This document shows, in pieces, positions 4,601-29,389 of a stretch of DNA of 36,197 bases. The notes beneath the pieces are model-generated. The model was not told the DNA's origin. It searched no databases and saw only the letters and a program-made list of their open reading frames with translations. The stretch comes from an uncultured virus (IMG/VR IMGVR_UViG_3300049259_000212) (Duplodnaviria; Heunggongvirae; Uroviricota; Caudoviricetes). The translations under genes were made by a program, and so were the position numbers. Numbering within the stretch: the stretch's first letter is position 1; each line of letters begins with the position of its first letter. The DNA is taken from the IMG/VR virus record IMGVR_UViG_3300049259_000212; one strand, given 5' to 3'.

Positions 4601-4888
4601 TCACCCTTCACGAGGGCTCTTTGTTGAGTCGGCGACGAGGTCGCCGTGATCTTCAACTGAGACGAGTCGGGTTCCGTCCGGCGTGACCATTCGATCGAGC
4701 TTGAGCGCGCCGAGTTTTGCGCTGATGCGCATCATGAAATCTCGCCGGTTCTCACCCTTCGGACACCAGCCGCCGCGCAGGTAATGGTCTCCTAGAGCGC
4801 TGAGCAAATAGGATCGCTCGCTCGCGGTCAATTCAAGCGACCCAGTGAAGATGTCCTCAAGTTTGGCGCGTGTGTCTTCGGTCTTCAC
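4601..4888 (-). CDS. hypothetical protein
   Basis: 95 aa ORF, 4-nt overlap with the PAPS-reductase-family gene. Confidence 0.6.
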   Translation of the reverse strand: MKTEDTRAKLEDIFTGSLELTASERSYLLSALGDHYLRGGWCPKGENRRDFMMRISAKLGALKLDRMVTPDGTRLVSVEDHGDLVADSTKSPREG

Positions 4889-6150
4889 GGCTCAGTCCTA
4901 GCGAGGGGTGTTAACCGGATAGGCAGGGTTCCTGCCGTGGTCATCAGGTCCCCGTAGCGGGCAAGGATTTGGTCCGCCTCTGTGTACTTCACATCGAGTG
5001 CGAGGAGGGTCCCGACGGATCGTCGAACGCCTGCGAGGAGATCCGCCTCGGCTCTCGTCGGCATGACTGTCGGCCAACCCTTGCTGTAGAGCAGATGCTC
5101 GGGGATGCGTGCCTCGATGATGGAACGCTCTACAGCTTTGCTCTTCGCGATAGCTACGCCCTGCAAGGCCTGTTGGTCGAGTAGATGCGGAGCTATGTCG
5201 GCGAGCCAGTGTGAGCCTTGAAACGCAAACGTTGAGGCTATCTCGAGCGCGACCATCGTGTGGAACACCGGCTGGTTGTCTTCGCAGGTCGCCGAGGCGA
5301 TCAGGTCTGATCGCTGCGCCATGATGCAGTAGCGGCACGAGATGCGACTCATCCCGTAGCGCGCGTAGCCTTCGTGCATAGCAAAGCCGCGCGCGGCACA
5401 GAACGCAAACACGTCTCGATCAGACCACTCCGCGATCGGGTTCCAATCGAGGCCTGTTGTGCCAGCGCCTTTTCGTTCGAGGCGCTTATTGATCTGGGCG
5501 GTCTTGGCGCTACTGCGCTGCCTGCTCTCGGACCGCCGGATGCCTGCGGCGGAGATAATCACGGTCCCGGGAAAGCGTTTCACGAGCGCAGCGGCAATCG
5601 GCGCGCTCTTGAGCTCGGAGGTGCAGAAACGCATTGACGGCGTCGACCACGGCAGGATGATCTTGACGCATTCGAGGTTCACGTAGCGCCGGACATTGTT
5701 GTCCCAGCGCCCCAGCCAGCGTTGCATCATGCCGCCGGCCGCGCGTCGTACGACGAGCAGCTCGATCCCGAGCCGGTCGGCGAGACGTCGACATGTTGGA
5801 AGTGAATCGGTCCACTCGACGTTGAACGCTGGATCTTCGTCATCGCCCAGGTCGGCGTGGACGAGGATTCGCGGCCCCGCGTGACCGATGGCGTTCAGGT
5901 GCTCGATGGTGGCGAGGGCCGCGGCGCAGGAGTCTTTGCCCCCAGAGACGCCGATCGCAACGGGCGAACCGTTCGTGAGCGCTGTGTCAAGCGCGTCGAT
6001 AGCAGCGATCTCGGCCTTGGCGTCGGCGCGCTTCGCGGCAGTCGTCGCCTTGTCTGCGATCCGCATTTCGAGATGCACGGTCCGTGAGATCAGCGACTCG
6101 ACTCCGCGATCCGCGCGGCCAGGCGCGGCTAATGTGATGAGCTTGGTCAT
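4885..6150 (-). CDS. phosphoadenosine phosphosulfate (PAPS) reductase family protein
   Basis: PP-loop VSGGKDS, HADLG, RFCTSELK, GIRRSES..R, W.PIAEWS and RISCRYC. Start MTKLIT overlaps the upstream stop. Confidence 0.9.
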   Translation of the reverse strand: MTKLITLAAPGRADRGVESLISRTVHLEMRIADKATTAAKRADAKAEIAAIDALDTALTNGSPVAIGVSGGKDSCAAALATIEHLNAIGHAGPRILVHADLGDDEDPAFNVEWTDSLPTCRRLADRLGIELLVVRRAAGGMMQRWLGRWDNNVRRYVNLECVKIILPWSTPSMRFCTSELKSAPIAAALVKRFPGTVIISAAGIRRSESRQRSSAKTAQINKRLERKGAGTTGLDWNPIAEWSDRDVFAFCAARGFAMHEGYARYGMSRISCRYCIMAQRSDLIASATCEDNQPVFHTMVALEIASTFAFQGSHWLADIAPHLLDQQALQGVAIAKSKAVERSIIEARIPEHLLYSKGWPTVMPTRAEADLLAGVRRSVGTLLALDVKYTEADQILARYGDLMTTAGTLPIRLTPLARTEP

Positions 6151-6893
6151 CCGATCGCGGCGTCGATTTCGATCGCCTTGGCTTCCCACGCGCTCATCAC
6201 GTCTTCAGAGAACGGGTAACGCTCTCGGCTCGCGGGACTCATCGTGACGACCGCGAGGGCCGCGAATCCCATGTCGTCGCCGCGAACAGGGCGCGTGAAC
6301 TGCGCGGGAGGTTCGACGAGCTTTGCTTTGCCATCCGTCACGTCGATCGCAACCACGGGGCGCGCATGGTCCTCGCAGAATTCGCCACTCATGAGTGTCG
6401 CCGTGAGCGTCAGGAAGGGGAACGCCTCAGCGAGGACACGCCAGTCCGCGAGCACTTCATCGATGTTCGGCCACTTGCCGATGTTGTCTATGTGGCTGAT
6501 GCGTCCATTGGGATGGCACCAGCCATGAGGGCCGTGAATGTAGGCAGATCCGATCCAACTGTTGTGCACGTACTGCGTCTCGACAACTCCCCAGGCTTTC
6601 TTCCAGCGATCGCAACGATCGCTGTAGTCTCTCCAGTCGAAGCCGTCGGGTTCTTTCACGGAGTAGTCGTGAAAGTGCGGCATGCGAAAGCGCTTCGCGA
6701 GGCGACGATCGCCTGCACGATCATTGCAGCCGTGCGCACCGACGAACCACGAATCGGTTCGGCGAATGATCTCGATCGCTTGCGCAGGCGTGACGGGGTG
6801 TCCTGTCACGATCATCTGCGGCCACTTCGGCAGCCCGAGGTTGAGCAGGTCGAGGACGGCTTTCTGTTGATCGGCGGTGGTGTCGGTCGTCAT
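6147..6893 (-). CDS. conserved phage hypothetical protein (LPKWPQ...GPHGWCHP...GKWP)
   Basis: Motifs LPKWPQMIVTG, EIIRRTD, GPHGWCHPNG, NIGKWP and AEAFPFL, which I recall from large-phage hypotheticals. Confidence 0.7.
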   Translation of the reverse strand: MTTDTTADQQKAVLDLLNLGLPKWPQMIVTGHPVTPAQAIEIIRRTDSWFVGAHGCNDRAGDRRLAKRFRMPHFHDYSVKEPDGFDWRDYSDRCDRWKKAWGVVETQYVHNSWIGSAYIHGPHGWCHPNGRISHIDNIGKWPNIDEVLADWRVLAEAFPFLTLTATLMSGEFCEDHARPVVAIDVTDGKAKLVEPPAQFTRPVRGDDMGFAALAVVTMSPASRERYPFSEDVMSAWEAKAIEIDAAIG

Positions 6894-10107: not shown

Positions 10108-11391
10108 TCAGCGGTCTTCCTCGCGCAGAGTTTTTCGAAGCGCGGACAACGCTTCCTTTTCAAGCTGACGCACACGCTCACGCGAGACGCCGAAATCGTC
10201 ACCAATATTTGCGAGGGTCCGCTCTGAGGGCTCTACAGTAGCCTCCGGGTCTTTCAAGCCGAAGCGCTTTCTGACGACGTTTGCCAAACGGACAGGTAGC
10301 TGTGCGACAGCCTTCATAAGACGGGCGTGTGTTTCACCAGCGATCATGCTCTCGAGCGCAGAGGTTGAGGCGTCTGTAGCCATAAGCGTATCGAGAAGAC
10401 TCAGACTATTTTCATCCGCTACGCTAATTGGCCCATCCAGCGATATCGCCGGACCTAACGCGCGGCTTAGCCGCTCGGCGTCTTCGAGTTTTGCGGAGGA
10501 CATCCCTGACGCGGTCGCGAGCTCATCAAGCGTTGGTTCTCGGCCCAATGCCGAAAACAGGGCCTTGCTATGCTTACGCCTCTTCTGCGCGCTCTCGATC
10601 GCGTGGATAGGAATTCTGACGGCGCGCTCTTTGTTGTCGATGGCGCGCGCGATGTGCTGCTTTATCCACAGCACCGCATAGGTAGCGAATCGAAAACCTT
10701 TCCTGTAGTCGTAGAGCTGCACGGCATACATGAGTCCAAGATTTCCTTCTTGGATGAGATCCCCAAGGGGAACGCCGGAACGTATCCACTGTTTCGCGAC
10801 CAGGATGACGAGACGAACGTTGCAAGTAATGAAACGCGTGCGGAGTGTTTCTGCTTCACGCTGAAGAGTGTGAACGCGGGCTAGCACCTCTGGGTCGAGT
10901 GTCACTGACGAAAGAACAGAAAGACTGTAGATACGCTCACGGTCGAGGCGGCGTAGTACGGAAGCGACGCTTTCAACAGGCTCTTGAAAATCTGGCAGCT
11001 TCGCATGTGTGAGCGTCAGCTCTTCGCGTTCCGCGAAAACGGTTCGGACTCGCGCAATAACCTCCGTGCCGGAGGTGGATTGTAAGAGTTCACGCCACAT
11101 CTCGGTTTCGGCGTCTTCGAGACGCTTTGCCATCGACAGTTCATCCGTCTTTGTAAGCAGGCCCAGCGACTTGATCTGGTTGAAGTAGATCCCAAGCACC
11201 TCTTTAGGTTTCGTGCTGCCTGAATGCTTTTTGGATGTCCTGGGCGGCGAAGCCTTCGCGGCCACCTTACGACCGCGAAAGCGCGAAATTGGTAGAGAGG
11301 CCTTTGAACAAGAGCGCGGGGCTTGACGCATCGCCGCGAGCAGTCCGCGGGAAGTGAGTCGTAATGTTCGCACCGCTTCCTTAGTTATCAC
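10108..11391 (-). CDS. RNA polymerase sigma-70 factor, RpoD/SigA-like
   Basis: Region 1.2 YFNQIK..GLLTKTDE; region 2 NVRLVILVAK, DLIQEGNLGL, GFRFATYA; region 3 VRIP...LGREPT; region 4 TLANIGDDFGVSRERVRQLE. Start uncertain. Confidence 0.93.
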   Translation of the reverse strand: MITKEAVRTLRLTSRGLLAAMRQAPRSCSKASLPISRFRGRKVAAKASPPRTSKKHSGSTKPKEVLGIYFNQIKSLGLLTKTDELSMAKRLEDAETEMWRELLQSTSGTEVIARVRTVFAEREELTLTHAKLPDFQEPVESVASVLRRLDRERIYSLSVLSSVTLDPEVLARVHTLQREAETLRTRFITCNVRLVILVAKQWIRSGVPLGDLIQEGNLGLMYAVQLYDYRKGFRFATYAVLWIKQHIARAIDNKERAVRIPIHAIESAQKRRKHSKALFSALGREPTLDELATASGMSSAKLEDAERLSRALGPAISLDGPISVADENSLSLLDTLMATDASTSALESMIAGETHARLMKAVAQLPVRLANVVRKRFGLKDPEATVEPSERTLANIGDDFGVSRERVRQLEKEALSALRKTLREEDR

Positions 11392-11439
11392 AAGACCCCT
11401 TACAGGTCCCGCCGTTTAGCTCAGGCATCGAGCATGCTC

Positions 11440-11484
11440 TTGCAAACAGAGATCGTTTGCTATACATCCTCTCGCGAAACGATC
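11440..11484 (+). promoter_or_regulatory. putative promoter and operator of the RAMP operon
   Basis: TTGCAA (11440) and TGcTATACA (11458-11466), overlapped by inverted repeats GCAAAC-N7-GTTTGC (11442-11460) and GATCGTTT/AAACGATC (11451-11458 and 11477-11484). Confidence 0.45.
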
Positions 11485-11514
11485 ACGTCGCGTCACTGAA
11501 AGGTTATCAACTGC

Positions 11515-12327
11515 ATGGCAAAGCCGCCTGAGTCTTCCGAGGTCCACATCGTCAATGTCGAGCGGGGACGCGTCACGTTCTGTCTGCTCGGCACCGCTCC
11601 GCTCTTGCACAACTGTCTTTCCAACAAGGCGAAGCATGAGTTGCTCTTGCCGATGGGACGCAAGACCGAAGCCGAGCGCAAGACGACTCTCAAGCATCAG
11701 CCTCACGAGGAATTTCGCGAATCGATCTACTACAATTCCAAGCCAGGTTCGCCGACACTGGTGCAGCATCTGTCCAGCGCGTTCCGTGGAGCGATGCGCT
11801 CGGCAGCCCTCGATCTACCCGGGGTCACGAAGTCCGAGATTGGAAGGCTCCTCTGGGTCGAAGGCGACCGTGTCGACATCTATGGCGTCCCTTTGCTCGA
11901 CATGCGTATCGTCCGTCAGGCCGGGATGAATCGCTCCCCTGACGTACGCACGCGATGCATCATGCGTGAGTGGGCCTGCGCGATCACCGTCGCGTTCACA
12001 AAGCCTCAGCTCAAGGAGCAGGCGGTGGCGAACCTGATCACGGCTGCGGGCCTTTACATCGGGATTGGCGACTACCGCAATGAGAAGGGCGCTGGTAACT
12101 ACGGATTGTTCCGCGTCTGTGATGCCAACGACCCGGACTACGTGCGCATCTGCAAGTCAGGTGGTCGCAAGGTCCAAGACGCTGCGATGAAGACGCCTGA
12201 ACCCTTCAACGAAGAGACGGCGGAGCTGTTGACGTGGTTCGAAGGTGCTGTCGCGCAGCATCGTACGTTCGCGCCGCTCACGACGAAGGGGAAGCGGGGC
12301 AAAGGGGCTTCCGAGGTTGCCTCGTGA
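11515..12327 (+). CDS. stand-alone Cas7/RAMP-like protein (Vipr-like)
   Basis: N-terminal beta strand plus GTAPLLH, SAFRGAMRSAA helix, and C-terminal Gly-rich loop AGLYIGIGDYRNEKGAGNYGLFRV, typical RAMP features. No other cas genes; followed by the GGY-NN array. Confidence 0.75.
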   Translation: MAKPPESSEVHIVNVERGRVTFCLLGTAPLLHNCLSNKAKHELLLPMGRKTEAERKTTLKHQPHEEFRESIYYNSKPGSPTLVQHLSSAFRGAMRSAALDLPGVTKSEIGRLLWVEGDRVDIYGVPLLDMRIVRQAGMNRSPDVRTRCIMREWACAITVAFTKPQLKEQAVANLITAAGLYIGIGDYRNEKGAGNYGLFRVCDANDPDYVRICKSGGRKVQDAAMKTPEPFNEETAELLTWFEGAVAQHRTFAPLTTKGKRGKGASEVAS

Positions 12328-12791
12328 CATCTTCCGATCGTGACGCAATCGTCGCAAGGCTTGAGACCCTGACTAAGCGCCACGGAGGCAACCTCACTGT
12401 TGAAGCCGTTGTCGAGGATGCACGTTCTCCGGGTAGCCCCCTCCACGCAAAGATCTTCGCGATCTCTGATACAGAAGCCGCACACGAGCACCGGCTGGAG
12501 CTTGCACGCCGACTCATCCGGTCCGTGCGTGTAACGATCACGGTTGAGAGGCAAGCCCTGTCGGTTGTTGCATACGTCCATGCCCCGGAATCGAAAAGCT
12601 TCGTGCCGACAGCTCCTTTCATCGACGTGAAAGAGCGTGGTGCAGAGACACTCCGAGTCGAGTTTGAGAAGATTGCGGCAGCTCTTGAGCGCTGCCGCAC
12701 GCTCACCGAAACGCTCGGGCTGCATGCCGAGTTCGCGAAACTAACAGCCGATGTACAGGCCCTTCTTGTTCAACACAGGAGGGTTGCGTGA
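12324..12791 (+). CDS. partner protein of the RAMP gene
   Basis: GTGA coupling; LTVEAVVEDARSPGSPLH...AAHEHRLELARRLIRSV resembles a widespread phage hypothetical family. Confidence 0.75.
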   Translation: MTSSDRDAIVARLETLTKRHGGNLTVEAVVEDARSPGSPLHAKIFAISDTEAAHEHRLELARRLIRSVRVTITVERQALSVVAYVHAPESKSFVPTAPFIDVKERGAETLRVEFEKIAAALERCRTLTETLGLHAEFAKLTADVQALLVQHRRVA

Positions 12792-12961
12792 CCAAGCAGA
12801 AAACAACCCGCTCGAAGCCGGTACTTGTACGCTTCAAACCTGAAGAGCGGCGCAAGATCGAAGCGCTTGCACGAGCACGGGGACTCGCGACGTCGTCATG
12901 GTTGCGGATGATCGCGTTGGATGCGGTTACAAGCGCGGCGAACAAGGGGGCGAAGGTGTAA
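12788..12961 (+). CDS. ribbon-helix-helix (CopG/Arc-like) DNA-binding protein, 57 aa
   Basis: Hand-translated MTKQKTTRSKPVLVRFKPEERRKIEALARARGLATSSWLRMIALDAV...; alternating beta strand, helix, G turn, helix; GTGA overlap. Not in the ORF track. Confidence 0.7.
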   Translation: MTKQKTTRSKPVLVRFKPEERRKIEALARARGLATSSWLRMIALDAVTSAANKGAKV

Positions 12962-12994
12962 GAGACAAGAAGTTGCGCGGCATAACGGTAACGT

Positions 12995-13317
12995 GGCTGG
13001 GCGTGGTTGGGTCAGGTACGCCAACGCTGGCGTGGATTGGTTGGGCTAGGCTGGGCGAGCGAGGGTCAGGAACGTTTCGGCAAGGCAGGTTTGGCAAGGC
13101 CTGGTGGGGTCAGGCGCGGTTTGGCAGGCTCGGCATTAATCGGTTAGGCTCGGCTCGGCACGGCACGGTGAGGCAGGCTGGGCTCGGTTTGGCGTGGCGG
13201 TGCAAGGCAAGGACAGGCTGGCGAGGCTAGGCGCGGTTTGGCTCGGCGCGGCGAGGTAAGGCAGGCAAGGTTAGGCGCGGTTTGGCTCGGCGCGGTCTGT
13301 TACGGCTCGGTAGGTTC
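12995..13317 (+). repeat. GGY-NN pentamer array, putative guide ncRNA precursor
   Basis: 58 in-phase pentamers (49 begin GGC or GGT) in 7 blocks, each closed by a tetramer (CGCT, GGCA x4, GGCT, GGTA), plus a final GGTTC. Confidence 0.85.
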
Positions 13318-13351
13318 ATCTGCACTGTTACTCAACTCGCAACCGGCTCAA

Positions 13352-14323
13352 CTACTCGGGCTTCTTACCGCGATAGATCAGTTCTTCGTTCGCGAGCCCA
13401 GGATGATCGTAGTTGCGCTCCACCGTATAGCGCTGCGCGAACCAGCGTTTGGCGCGGTGGTCGTTGATGTACTTCCATCGGATCCCGGTTCGTCCTTCGC
13501 CTATACGGACCCGGCGAAGATGCCCTCTGACCGTCGTATCCCCGAGGACGCGCTTGGACGGATCGCCAAGGTGTGTCTCAACAGATGCAGGCGCTGCTGA
13601 CGGCGCCTGGCGATCACGCACACGCACTTCGCGAGTCTTCGTTTTCTTGTCGATCTCGAATCGAAGGGGACCCTCCACGATCTGTTCGAGGAGTCCAAAG
13701 ATCACGAGGAAGCGCGCGGCTGCCTTTGCGTACCGGCGGTGCTCAAAGACTTCGATACTGTCGAGCAGATTCACTCCCCAATCAGGAGGGGGCATTTGCT
13801 CATCGAGATCTTCCCCCGTCCATACAGGTTGCCAACGCGCAGCGAACGTGCGATTCGGCCAGCATTGACCAAACAGCATGATGGCGGGAAGCAACTGTGG
13901 CGGCGTGCGCTCTGCTCCAGTCACCTCGTACCAAGCCAGTGAAACAACATCCTCCCAGAGTCGTTCACCCGTCTCGGGTCGACGTGCCTCGATGATGCCA
14001 GGTGATCGCAAGAGCGGTGGCGGTTCTGACGGGATCGAGCACAGATCGGTGTCTTCTACGACGTGACTCGCAGAGGGTCTGATCATGTATGTCGCGGGCT
14101 GTCCGCGTGACTTGAGTGCTAGTGCCCCGAGCTTGCTGGCGAAGACCGGATCCTCCTTGAGCACCTCCTCGCCGTACTGCTCGGCGATGATGGTGGCGGA
14201 AGCGATTTTCGCAAGACGTGGAGGCATCACGGCTGGAGCCCGCGAAACGAGCTTCTTTAGGGGAGCGATCAGCTTCGTGATCGGTATGAATACGGTGTCG
14301 GTGTCGAGAATGCCCTTAGTCAT
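13352..14323 (-). CDS. hypothetical protein with VRGHLR motif
   Basis: 323 aa, GGAAAGG upstream; C-terminal TTVRGHLRRVRIGEGR. Confidence 0.7.
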   Translation of the reverse strand: MTKGILDTDTVFIPITKLIAPLKKLVSRAPAVMPPRLAKIASATIIAEQYGEEVLKEDPVFASKLGALALKSRGQPATYMIRPSASHVVEDTDLCSIPSEPPPLLRSPGIIEARRPETGERLWEDVVSLAWYEVTGAERTPPQLLPAIMLFGQCWPNRTFAARWQPVWTGEDLDEQMPPPDWGVNLLDSIEVFEHRRYAKAAARFLVIFGLLEQIVEGPLRFEIDKKTKTREVRVRDRQAPSAAPASVETHLGDPSKRVLGDTTVRGHLRRVRIGEGRTGIRWKYINDHRAKRWFAQRYTVERNYDHPGLANEELIYRGKKPE

Positions 14324-21472: not shown

Positions 21473-21904
21473 TCAAGATGCAACTCTCGCCTCTTTGCAG
21501 CGAGCATTCTTTGGAAGTCTTCCCACGATTCGTGAAGCCTGGCTGTTCCACGTAAGGCTAACTGCTGGAAGATCGATCTCGAAGGCCACTCCATGCGATC
21601 TGTAGGCGCGTAGCACGATCAATCGCAAGCTCCATCCGAAGTCGTCAATGACCCACCACCAGTCGACGTAGGGGGATAGACGCTCTTGATTGATGGGCGA
21701 GGATGTCTCCACCTCGTAACAAATAAGTTCTTGGCGATCGCGATCGAATAGGTAGCCGTCCGGCACGATCCTAGTGCCTTCAAGAGATTCCAGATCTTTG
21801 CTCGTAAGGTTCAGCTCCGAGCGCACGGCACGTTTGAAGCTATGTCGTCGTGCACCGACCTCGCTAAGGAGTTTATCGACAAGCTGGCAATGTTGTTCTT
21901 TCAC
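21473..21904 (-). CDS. putative PD-(D/E)XK-fold nuclease
   Basis: IVPDGYLF...LICYEVETS (PD...E-x-E variant); coupled to the recombinase gene. Confidence 0.5.
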   Translation of the reverse strand: MKEQHCQLVDKLLSEVGARRHSFKRAVRSELNLTSKDLESLEGTRIVPDGYLFDRDRQELICYEVETSSPINQERLSPYVDWWWVIDDFGWSLRLIVLRAYRSHGVAFEIDLPAVSLTWNSQASRIVGRLPKNARCKEARVAS

Positions 21905-22827
21905 GGAGCTTTCCTTCGGTTTGCGCGGAAGGTTGCAACCTGTCGCGCGACACCCGTTCCACGGGCCTTGCCGTCATAACGGGCCGTCATGTCCGCACTC
22001 GCGTGACCCGCAGCTCCCTGAATCTCATACGACGGAAGCCCCGCCTCATGGGCGTCGCGCAGAAACAGCGCGCGGAAGCTGTGGGGGTGCGCTGCGGGCG
22101 CTGCCTTGGCGGCCCACCTGTCGATGATCTTGTTCACGGTGTTGGGGTGCAGGTGACCGTCGCCCTCGCTCGCCGGAAAGAGATAGCTCGAGGTCCGGCG
22201 TTCGGTGAGCCAGTGATCGAGCGCCTGGATGCTCTCATCCGGCAGCTCGACCTCTTGTTCCTTGTCACCCTTCTGTCGATTGAACACGCGACGCCCGTCA
22301 TAGTTGGCCCGTGGTAGGGACGCGATCGCCGTGCGGCGCCAGCCGGTGTCGAGGAGCAGGCACAGCACCGCGTGATCTCGAGCGTGACCCGACGCTGCCT
22401 GCATGATTGCGACTGCTTGGTCATCCGTGATACGCCTCGACTTGAGGACCTTACCTGCACGGGGCCAAGCAAGGATTTCCGGATGGAACGGGTTCGTCGA
22501 GACGATGGGGCGCTGATGCTCGTCAGGGAGCTTTCGCAGCGTGCTGTAGATGGTCGACATCGACGCGAGTCGACGTCGCCGCGTATCTTCGGAGCCGATC
22601 AACGAATCGCGATAGAGCGTCGCGTTGGCGAGCGTTGGCGTCTTGGGATCGATCTGCTTGTGCGAGCAGAACGCGAGCCATCCTTCGAGATCTCGCCTGT
22701 ACGCGTCCTTCGTGTGCGGTGATTTCTTCGCGTCGATCACCTGACGAGCGACGGTCCTGAAATCGATCCGCGATTCGAGCCGCGGGACCAGTGAGGTACC
22801 TGCTTTGTCGGGCGATCGCGGCTTCAC
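21901..22827 (-). CDS. tyrosine recombinase/integrase (XerC/D-like)
   Basis: N-terminal SPHTKDAYRRDL; catalytic DTGWR(R), QKGDK, HPHSFR, AGHAS and TARY. Confidence 0.92.
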   Translation of the reverse strand: MKPRSPDKAGTSLVPRLESRIDFRTVARQVIDAKKSPHTKDAYRRDLEGWLAFCSHKQIDPKTPTLANATLYRDSLIGSEDTRRRRLASMSTIYSTLRKLPDEHQRPIVSTNPFHPEILAWPRAGKVLKSRRITDDQAVAIMQAASGHARDHAVLCLLLDTGWRRTAIASLPRANYDGRRVFNRQKGDKEQEVELPDESIQALDHWLTERRTSSYLFPASEGDGHLHPNTVNKIIDRWAAKAAPAAHPHSFRALFLRDAHEAGLPSYEIQGAAGHASADMTARYDGKARGTGVARQVATFRANRRKAP

Positions 22828-28175: not shown

Positions 28176-28559
28176 ATGACGATCCTCACGTCCAAGCAAA
28201 TCTGGCGGCGCAACCCGTCGCCGGCTCCCAAGCCGCGGCAGCTCGGGAACTGGCTCAACCCAACCGAGCGCGAGAACGTGCGCCACGCGGTGAACTATCT
28301 CGCTGGGCGCTACGAGACGATGGCAGCGTTCGCTGCTGCGGTAGGTCTTACGCGTGATGGCGTAATGAAGGCACGGTCACCTCATCGCGCGCAGACCTAT
28401 CGTCTCGCGTGTCTCGTTGCTAGCTGCGTCGGCGTGTTACCCGAAAGTATCGTGAGCGGAGCGTGGCCTGGCGATCGATGCCCCCACTGCGGCGGCACTG
28501 GCAAGCGCTCGCAAATCGTCGACGTGACGAGAAAGACGCAGCTGAGACGGGCTCGTTAG
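28176..28559 (+). CDS. HTH (XRE-like) regulator with C-terminal CPHC
   Basis: TMAAFAAAVGLTRDGV helix-turn-helix-like segment; transposon cargo. Confidence 0.6.
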   Translation: MTILTSKQIWRRNPSPAPKPRQLGNWLNPTERENVRHAVNYLAGRYETMAAFAAAVGLTRDGVMKARSPHRAQTYRLACLVASCVGVLPESIVSGAWPGDRCPHCGGTGKRSQIVDVTRKTQLRRAR

Positions 28560-29389
28560 GCTGCGAGAGATTCGGCCGTCTCGAGCAACTCGCCCAGCGA
28601 CCACATCGTCGACTCGACGCCGGCTCCCATCGCGGGCGTGACTCGCGTGGTCGTGTGGCGACGCACGAAGTTGTGATGCGCGACGTACAGCGCCACCGCA
28701 GCAACGTGGTTCTCCAGCTTCTTGGAGAATGCATTCGTCAGGCGTGTGAAGCGCCGCGTGCTCATGCGGATGTTCAGGTTGTTTCGCTCGACATAGCTGG
28801 TGCTCACGAACTCGGAGATCGGTGCGCCCGAGATCGGCGTCTTCTCCGTGGAAGCGACGTTCGGCGGTGAGTACCGCCCTTCACCTGCTGGCTCTGCCTC
28901 GTAGGTTTTTACGATCTGCGCGTAGTCGACTTCGCTGCCGAACGCTTGTTCGATTGCTTCGACGTACTGGCGCAGACCGTCAGTAGAGAGCTGGACACGG
29001 TTTCGCAGACGAGCAGCGAGGTTCGAGACGAAGGCGTTCGTGTTGCGCGCCTCGCGCTTCCCAACGAGGTACGCCGGGATCAACTTCGTCTCCGCGTCGA
29101 GAGCGACGTACACCCACTGATCACCGACGCTCGCGCCATCCGTCTCTCGCACCGTGCGCTGTTTCTTCGCGACGTACGACCACAACTCGTCGAGCTCCAG
29201 GCGCTTGCAGCCAAGATCGACCATCCGATCATCGAGCAGTCGAGCGCAGCCTTCGCCGACTCGAACGAGCAACCGGCAGATGGTGTCACGATGCACACCC
29301 GTGAGACGCTCTGCCGAGCGAACCGAGCAACCCTCGACGAGCGTGGCAAGGACCGCCAGCTTCTTCTCGGTTCGGAGGTGGTTCGCCAT
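28556..29389 (-). CDS. IS1-family DDE transposase
   Basis: N-terminal HTH (EGCSVRSAERLTGVHRDT), ELDELW, STDG, TSYVERNN, RRFTR...FSKKLENH and TPAM. Confidence 0.92.
   Translation of the reverse strand: MANHLRTEKKLAVLATLVEGCSVRSAERLTGVHRDTICRLLVRVGEGCARLLDDRMVDLGCKRLELDELWSYVAKKQRTVRETDGASVGDQWVYVALDAETKLIPAYLVGKREARNTNAFVSNLAARLRNRVQLSTDGLRQYVEAIEQAFGSEVDYAQIVKTYEAEPAGEGRYSPPNVASTEKTPISGAPISEFVSTSYVERNNLNIRMSTRRFTRLTNAFSKKLENHVAAVALYVAHHNFVRRHTTTRVTPAMGAGVESTMWSLGELLETAESLAA

Follow-up and report, generated by a model that had tools for sequence, protein, structure and literature searches.

A probable VIPR system of a distant Vipr clade, with a staggered GGY-NN array, on a soil-metagenome contig

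VIPR (Viral Interference Programmable Repeat) systems have been in print only since April 2026. The discovery preprint (10.64898/2026.04.26.720920) describes a minimal locus in which a gene for a Vipr protein of the RAMP type is joined by a vap gene and by vrRNAs; the latter have 9-16 YNNGG repeats and read double-stranded DNA through their NN positions, with one skipped base. Its published set comprises 667 systems, about 71% of them on viral or proviral carriers, and seven types are distinguished, with array architectures that include staggered arrays, ribozyme-interspersed arrays and single-vrRNA loci. As far as its account of these architectures goes, confirmation by small-RNA sequencing is stated for the ribozyme-interspersed and single-vrRNA forms and not for the staggered one; only type II is presented there as studied in depth, with small-RNA sequencing done for types III and V. 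Cryo-electron microscopy (10.64898/2026.04.26.720927) places one protomer on each repeat, with GGY sequestered and NN exposed, and in SUSP1 Vipr the GGY bases are held by R138 of the thumb and by D177, W178 and R179 of a loop rich in glycine (the G-loop). A phage VIPR has been reported to silence the excision recombinase of a satellite (10.64898/2026.10.15.759431), and 99 VIPR-like array clusters have been recovered (10.64898/2026.10.21.760802). Here we analyze positions 11,515 to 13,317 of a 36,197-nucleotide stretch of DNA (IMG/VR record IMGVR_UViG_3300049259_000212; this whole stretch is hereafter called the window), a locus that is very probably a VIPR system on a mobile-element-like stretch of a soil-metagenome contig.

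VIPR as a system type is already in print, and the locus is a new example of it in a distant Vipr clade, which may itself already be listed in tables S2-S3, data S4 or figs S16-S18 of the discovery preprint. A preliminary description of this DNA, made from the sequence alone, had likened the locus to recently reported viral VIPR systems, and rightly so, the combination of Vipr RAMP, vap gene and GGY/NN pentamer vrRNAs being the one described in bioRxiv 10.64898/2026.04.26.720920. By our analysis, the computationally testable features of a VIPR system in protein, array and gene content were all found at the locus, whose mechanism is taken from homology with SUSP1 VIPR. The operon consists of three coupled genes on the + strand, encoding 270, 155 and 57 aa as previously claimed, and both junctions proved to be 4-nt GTGA overlaps. 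The genes and the region before them are as follows.

11392..11514, + strand: intergenic region, presumed promoter/operator, between a divergent sigma-70-family gene and vipr
11515..12327, + strand: vipr, encoding a 270-aa Vipr-family RAMP
12324..12791, + strand: vap-like accessory gene, 155 aa, with a 4-nt overlap with the vipr stop
12788..12961, + strand: ribbon-helix-helix (RHH) gene, 57 aa, with a 4-nt overlap with the stop of the vap-like gene

The structure model of the vipr product comprises an RRM core, a long beta-hairpin thumb (about residues 123-163) and a G-loop (residues 183-198), and the RAMP hallmarks of VIPR systems (RRM core, thumb and glycine-rich loop) are hence all present in the 270-aa protein. 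The model also has an extra C-terminal helical domain (about residues 206-250) without counterpart in the structural and profile matches. The two segments on which the RAMP assignment had originally been built, GTAPLLH (residues 26-32) and GIGDYRNEKGAGNYGLF (residues 183-199), were both found in the translation, and the check for a RAMP fold proposed for 11515..12327 was positive, with the family homologous to a solved Vipr. Indeed, when a 66-member family profile was compared with the PDB, the sole significant match was the SUSP1 Vipr protein (36pp_D, E 5.9e-9), the next match having an E-value of 0.43. The SUSP1 GGY contacts R138, D177, W178 and R179 align with R147, D186, Y187 and R188 of the window protein, and these positions are conserved across the 66-sequence family alignment: R147 and R188 are present in 66/66 sequences, D186 in 59/66, and position 187 is aromatic in 51/66.

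Searches with the 270-aa protein place it in a large family. No Pfam or NCBIfam family was matched; the protein matches phrog_4652, a PHROGs family of unknown function. A word-indexed search returned 81 matches, the query's own entry included, and an exhaustive search returned 1,636 representative clusters at E <= 0.001, with 342 at E <= 1e-30, while a single-protein scan of viral contigs found no relative. Unannotated homologues were also present in a phage collection, in 25 mycobacteriophage records as well as in Gordonia phages, a cyanophage and a Pseudomonas phage.

The regular GGY-NN array begins 33 nt after the RHH stop and runs on the + strand from 12995 to about 13317. It contains 41 GGY-5nt-GGY pairs and, with both strands of the window considered, is the sole cluster of at least four such pairs; no such cluster was found in 17 unrelated control loci (L020-L036). 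Among in-frame pentamers, 55/63 are GGY-NN, and the array criterion of the discovery preprint is at least 4 tandem YNNGG/GGYNN units, a number that the window array exceeds. The array announced in the preliminary description is thus real and not a product of chance, with two refinements: degenerate GGY units occur already from 12979, ahead of the regular array, and the tract is organized into 6-7 staggered units of 8-12 pentamers, each offset by -1 nt from the preceding unit. The units are separated by 4-nt junctions (GGCA/GG four times, GGCT/GG once and GGTA/GG once, the slash marking the boundary), each of which is a -1 register shift, and the unit lengths between junctions (39, 49, 44, 44 and 49 nt) are all of the form 5n-1. 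Because the G that closes the last pentamer of a unit (GGCAG) also opens the first GG of the following one, each unit starts where its predecessor ends. The parts of the array are listed below.

12962..12994, + strand: leader, from the RHH stop to the regular array, with two GGY units (12979 and 12987) that are irregularly spaced
12995..13019, + strand: array unit A, 5 in-frame GGYNN pentamers, then a 9-nt break
13029..13088, + strand: array unit B, 12 pentamers, 8 with canonical GGY, with the terminal junction GGCA/G
13088..13127, + strand: array unit C, 8 pentamers, 8 with GGY, with the NN string TT AA CT GG CA GC TT AG
13127..13176, + strand: array unit D, 10 pentamers, 9 with GGY
13176..13220, + strand: array unit E, 9 pentamers, 7 with GGY, with the junction GGCT/G
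13220..13264, + strand: array unit F, 9 pentamers, 9 with GGY, with the NN run TA GC TT TC GC in common with unit G
13264..13313, + strand: array unit G, 10 pentamers, 9 with GGY, terminating in GGTA/G
13327..13336, + strand: 10-mer GTTACTCAAC, 14 nt beyond the last unit and unique in the window

The 10-mer GTTACTCAAC also lies just past the arrays of two related loci, L005 (127-136) and L013 (1076-1085), and in no other of the 36 loci, suggesting that it may be a conserved 3' terminal element. Folding of the array RNA was no better than that of shuffled sequences (z -0.66), and a search of Rfam, including the hammerhead families, gave no match at E <= 1 in 11300-13500 and none at the gathering score in the whole window. 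Units F and G (13220-13313) share a 22-nt identical stretch, and locus L007 has duplicated units differing at one NN; from these sequences, guides appear to diversify by local duplication.

The proposal that homologues be inspected for adjacent pentamer arrays was also borne out, 13/17 homologue loci having an array of GGY pentamers on the strand that encodes vipr. The loci examined were 12 metagenome contigs, one contig of an Acidobacteriota metagenome-assembled genome (MAG), two plasmids (Paracoccus and Sulfitobacter), Mycobacterium phage Saal and two weak matches, the last obtained by scanning genomes of the MAG's phylum, 3/401 of which gave matches. The position of the array relative to the genes varies: it lies downstream of vipr and vap in L001, L003, L004 (identical to L003 here, which it duplicates), L006, L007, L008 and L011, upstream of vipr in L005, L013, Saal (L016) and L018, and between vipr and the vap-like gene in the two plasmids (L014 and L015). 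Flanking genes are not common to the loci, except for a sigma-factor gene in L003, and the module therefore moves as a cassette.

Across 12 arrays, 616 successive GGY spacings comprised 520 in frame, 66 steps of -1 and 30 others, and parsing of nine arrays yielded 53 units of at least 5 pentamers, mostly of 10-12. Entropy, computed over 471 pentamers of 12 arrays, was 1.95 bits at position 4 and 1.96 bits at position 5, positions 1-3 being fixed by the selection of the pentamers. NN strings of different loci were never more alike than shuffled controls, and this held for L003 too, although its Vipr is 84% identical; judged from these sequences, guide content differs completely between relatives. 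One related contig holds an unusual copy: in L009 (2916-4994, +), one open frame contains both a prolyl-oligopeptidase N-terminal domain and a fragment of Vipr (residues 26-207, 76% identity), perhaps because the copy is decayed or fused or because the assembly is chimeric.

A relative in a known phage is gp51 of Mycobacterium phage Saal (NC_023580.1), which is 28% identical to the window protein over residues 10-201 and is followed by a gene of about 150 aa. As in the window, a GGCNN array (2598-2842) lies on the same strand, with GGCA/GG junctions and 59-nt units. In contrast to the window, the Saal array is immediately upstream of the vipr homologue rather than downstream, and Saal is a bona fide temperate phage in which the gp51 locus sits beside the immunity repressor, between the antirepressor region and the excisionase gene. 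Saal gp51 and 24 further mycobacteriophage homologues are annotated as hypothetical proteins; the Saal locus is the only one of these that we viewed.

Compared with the type II VIPR of SUSP1 and Pseudomonas fulva, the locus likewise encodes a single small RAMP with RRM, thumb and G-loop. It shares with SUSP1 VIPR the GGY-contacting R and D-aromatic-R residues, an RNA array of GGY-NN pentamers and a small accessory gene predicted to bind DNA, in the same absence of Cas genes and CRISPR repeats. The two differ in several respects: the window protein has 270 aa and an extra C-terminal helical domain, against 202 residues in the solved SUSP1 chain; their sequence similarity is detectable by profile only; an RHH gene is added in the window; and the window has continuous staggered units in place of the separate vrRNAs of about 100 nt, each with a conserved pseudoknot tail, described for SUSP1. 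The structured 3' pseudoknot tail of each type II vrRNA has no counterpart in the window, where units abut via 4-nt junctions, and the hammerheads that stand between vrRNAs in ribozyme-interspersed VIPR are likewise lacking from the window array. The staggered array, the longer protein and the lack of tails therefore place the locus outside the SUSP1 type. The locus resembles the staggered vrRNA arrays of the fig. S18 legend of the discovery preprint (10.64898/2026.04.26.720920), which speaks of '1 nt overlapping positions', in that its successive units overlap by 1 nt.

The window protein is also distinct from Csm3 and other Cas7 backbone subunits of type III (and type VII) effectors, with which it has 6-15% sequence identity. 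Those effectors come with a CRISPR array, Cas10, Cas5, Cas6, Cas11 or adaptation genes, none of which accompanies vipr here, and their period is 6 nt with one base flipped, as opposed to 5 nt with three bases sequestered (10.64898/2026.04.26.720927). The earlier claim that the window is free of Cas genes and CRISPR repeats withstood scrutiny, PADLOC on 40 open reading frames (ORFs), Pfam on 41 ORFs and the repeat scans all being blank: no Cas protein was recognized among these ORFs, no CRISPR-like repeat or repeat-spacer array was found in the window, and the features of class 1 CRISPR-Cas systems (repeat-spacer array, Cas5, Cas6, large subunit, Cas1/2) are absent from its 40-41 ORFs. Furthermore, no nuclease, helicase, Cas gene or CRISPR array was found in the coupled genes and the neighbors scanned around vipr, and the locus for this reason fits the repression-type VIPRs with DNA-binding vaps described in the discovery preprint.

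The vap-like gene recurs with vipr. Its start at 12324 is backed by N-terminal alignment with homologues. In eight loci vipr is followed by a version of this gene with 35-66% identity, and a weak homologue lies 3' of the array in L014. The 155-aa protein has an N-terminal domain that is winged-helix-like, on weak support, and a C-terminus that forms a helical hairpin; it is the conserved accessory factor of the clade and probably a nucleic-acid binder. Prediction of a Vipr-Vap complex scored 0.00, which says nothing either way. The 57-aa RHH protein matches NikA-like Pfam PF21983 (1.5e-7) and the Arc-like repressor family phrog_3431 (3.9e-8), with weak NCBIfam matches to TraJ, MobA and RelB, all below cut-off. 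No tblastn match to it was found in any related locus; the RHH gene is therefore a local addition, and it probably encodes a local transcriptional regulator of the operon or the array. Upstream of vipr, a perfect 8-bp inverted repeat (GATCGTTT/AAACGATC) occurs at 11451-11484 with 18 nt between its arms, and is a candidate operator, for instance for the RHH protein.

By homology with SUSP1 VIPR, the operon of vipr, vap-like gene and RHH gene would be transcribed rightward together with the downstream array, and the array RNA would be the source of 6-7 vrRNAs, guide units that each comprise 8-12 GGY-NN pentamers. On every unit Vipr protomers would polymerize, one per pentamer, with R147 of the thumb and D186-Y187-R188 of the G-loop holding the GGY bases and the NN dinucleotides displayed. 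The NN string would then read double-stranded DNA with one base skipped per pentamer (the NNx rule), for a footprint of 24-36 bp, and the filament, once bound, would keep a competing mobile element from being transcribed. What this analysis itself provides is membership of the family, the fold, the conservation of the residues in contact with GGY, the statistics of the array and its co-occurrence with vipr; we infer the binding mode and the silencing role at this locus by homology.

The junctions add a suggestion of our own. The 4-nt junctions (GGCA/GG) would put each unit out of the 5-nt register of its predecessor and might in this way delimit filaments or processing sites without tail or ribozyme. 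We tentatively propose, as a possibility held with low confidence, that guide units are delimited by register alone, a 4-nt GGCA slip every 8-12 pentamers breaking the phase of the Vipr filament and thereby splitting one tail-less, ribozyme-less transcript into independent filaments or marking cuts for host RNases, and that the RHH protein is a dedicated switch for array expression.

Several observations weigh against assigning the locus to VIPR systems on a mobile element. At the level of the protein, the Foldseek TM-scores were modest (0.36-0.51), the match to 36pp_D spans only the thumb-to-G-loop segment of about 50 residues, and the window protein alone aligned with SUSP1 Vipr at an E-value of 0.77, significance being reached only via the family profile. 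H32 of the GTAPLLH strand is not conserved in the wider family, and no equivalents of SUSP1 H17 and K33 could be mapped in the window protein. At the level of the array, type II vrRNAs are reported to have 9-16 repeats, more than unit C (8 pentamers) or unit A (5) contains. Four of the 17 homologue loci (L002, L009, L010 and L012, on contigs of 1.4-5.1 kb) are without array; the contigs of L002, L009 and L010 run out less than about 300 nt downstream of the module, that of L012 stops inside vipr, and L019, a marginal match (E 8.9e-4), is likewise without array. A simple scan of the locus gave no consensus promoter (sigma-70 included) or terminator, and the locus was in none of the RNA-seq runs searched, only the probable source DNA run (a soil metagenome) containing it. 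PHROGs recognized no phage structural (virion) gene among 36 window ORFs, which makes it no more than possible that the element is viral or proviral. Lastly, no natural target was established in the window or in four pattern scans of IMG/VR.

The IMG/VR scans used four exact NNx patterns of 18 specified bases each and returned 1, 9, 3 and 4 matches. For unit D, 7/9 matches fall in one near-identical giant-virus gene with an acidic low-complexity stretch, and for unit E, 2/4 fall in one phage gene; host GC ranged from 0.31 to 0.56, and the skipped base lay at the wobble position in 5 of about 10 independent matches. These numbers and properties are compatible with chance, and the matches were rejected as natural targets. 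A perfect match of unit G in a DDE transposase of control locus L020 was also rejected, since it is one event, about as many as chance would produce.

Three other explanations of the locus were weighed. The VIPR system could serve to control resident elements, its guides silencing genes of the same replicon or host, such as insertion sequence (IS) transposases, and so stabilizing the carrier; there is on record a VIPR targeting an excision recombinase (10.64898/2026.10.15.759431). The self-target scoring bears directly on this point: seven units were scored on both window strands under the NNx rule, with 200 shuffles each, and 15/18 NN positions (83%) of unit E match at 29157-29182 (-), inside an IS1-like transposase ORF (28556-29389, -), in frame (codons W-S-Y-V-A-K-K-Q-R, from aa 70), the skipped base falling at the wobble position of the codon. 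This score was reached by 2% of the shuffled guides; however, with seven guides tested the family-wise chance of such a match is about 13% before the frame argument, unit E includes two degenerate pentamers, and the other six units gave no match above shuffles on either strand of the window. The Methods of the discovery preprint (10.64898/2026.04.26.720920), for the clades examined there, moreover report no self-targeting at >=80% NN. The unit E match may thus be a self or IS target, or chance, and control of resident elements is an unlikely explanation of the locus. It is very unlikely that the locus is a nuclease-coupled host-defence VIPR, like types III-V of the preprint, destroying rather than repressing its targets: such a role would suit the defence-like neighbors, namely a PAPS-reductase/DndC/BrxP-like protein (4885-6189) and the sigma-factor gene matching PADLOC MzaA, but neither the two vipr-coupled genes nor the scanned neighbors have an HNH, helicase or other nuclease domain, and the conserved partner combines a weak winged-helix-like fold with a helical hairpin.

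The pentamer tract might instead be a repeat acting at the level of DNA (a G-rich microsatellite, a G-quadruplex-prone tract, or iterons for the RHH or winged-helix-like protein), with the RAMP-like protein acting on other RNA. Two DNA-binding-type proteins are encoded immediately upstream of the tract, and the promoter, terminator and RNA-seq searches provided no evidence of transcription. Such a repeat would nevertheless have to be reconciled with a tract that always lies on the vipr coding strand across loci with no other genes in common, with the absence of the RHH gene from all relatives that retain arrays, with fixed GGY alongside NN near maximum entropy, and with the conservation in the window family of the residues that contact GGY in the solved Vipr-vrRNA complex; we consider it extremely unlikely. 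Taken together, these data favor a VIPR system directed at competing mobile elements, at the strength given above.

The window as a whole has a GC content of about 0.61 and comes from a soil metagenome. Besides the IS1-like transposase, it contains a tyrosine integrase gene (21901-22827) and a recombinase fragment; no tRNA gene was found in it. Divergent from vipr, a sigma-70-family gene (10108-11391, -) encodes regions 2, 3 and 4 and is MzaA-like in PADLOC (5.5e-36). A sigma-factor gene 32% identical to it lies 3' of the array in L003 (6603-8315, +), and the link between VIPR and a sigma factor hence recurs in two otherwise non-syntenic loci. Further away, the gene at 4885-6189 (-) encodes a 434-aa protein with a PAPS-reductase domain and weak PADLOC matches to BrxP, DndC and SspD, and may be a DNA-modification or defence gene on the element that carries vipr.

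The clade to which the window protein belongs ranges over soil metagenomes, an Acidobacteriota MAG, alphaproteobacterial plasmids and well-studied mycobacteriophages, and its array architecture is the one that the discovery preprint mentions without, in its account of that architecture, reporting experimental confirmation. Mycobacteriophages, as phages of Mycobacterium smegmatis, offer a tractable model for the production of staggered guides and for their targets. Because the system is compact, its one protein measuring 270 aa and its guide units about 40-60 nt, it may be of interest as a programmable DNA binder. If the tentative proposal made above on the junctions is true, punctuation of guides by register only would be unlike CRISPR repeats, TIGR repeats or the tails of type II vrRNAs, and the RHH protein would represent a new class of VIPR accessory.

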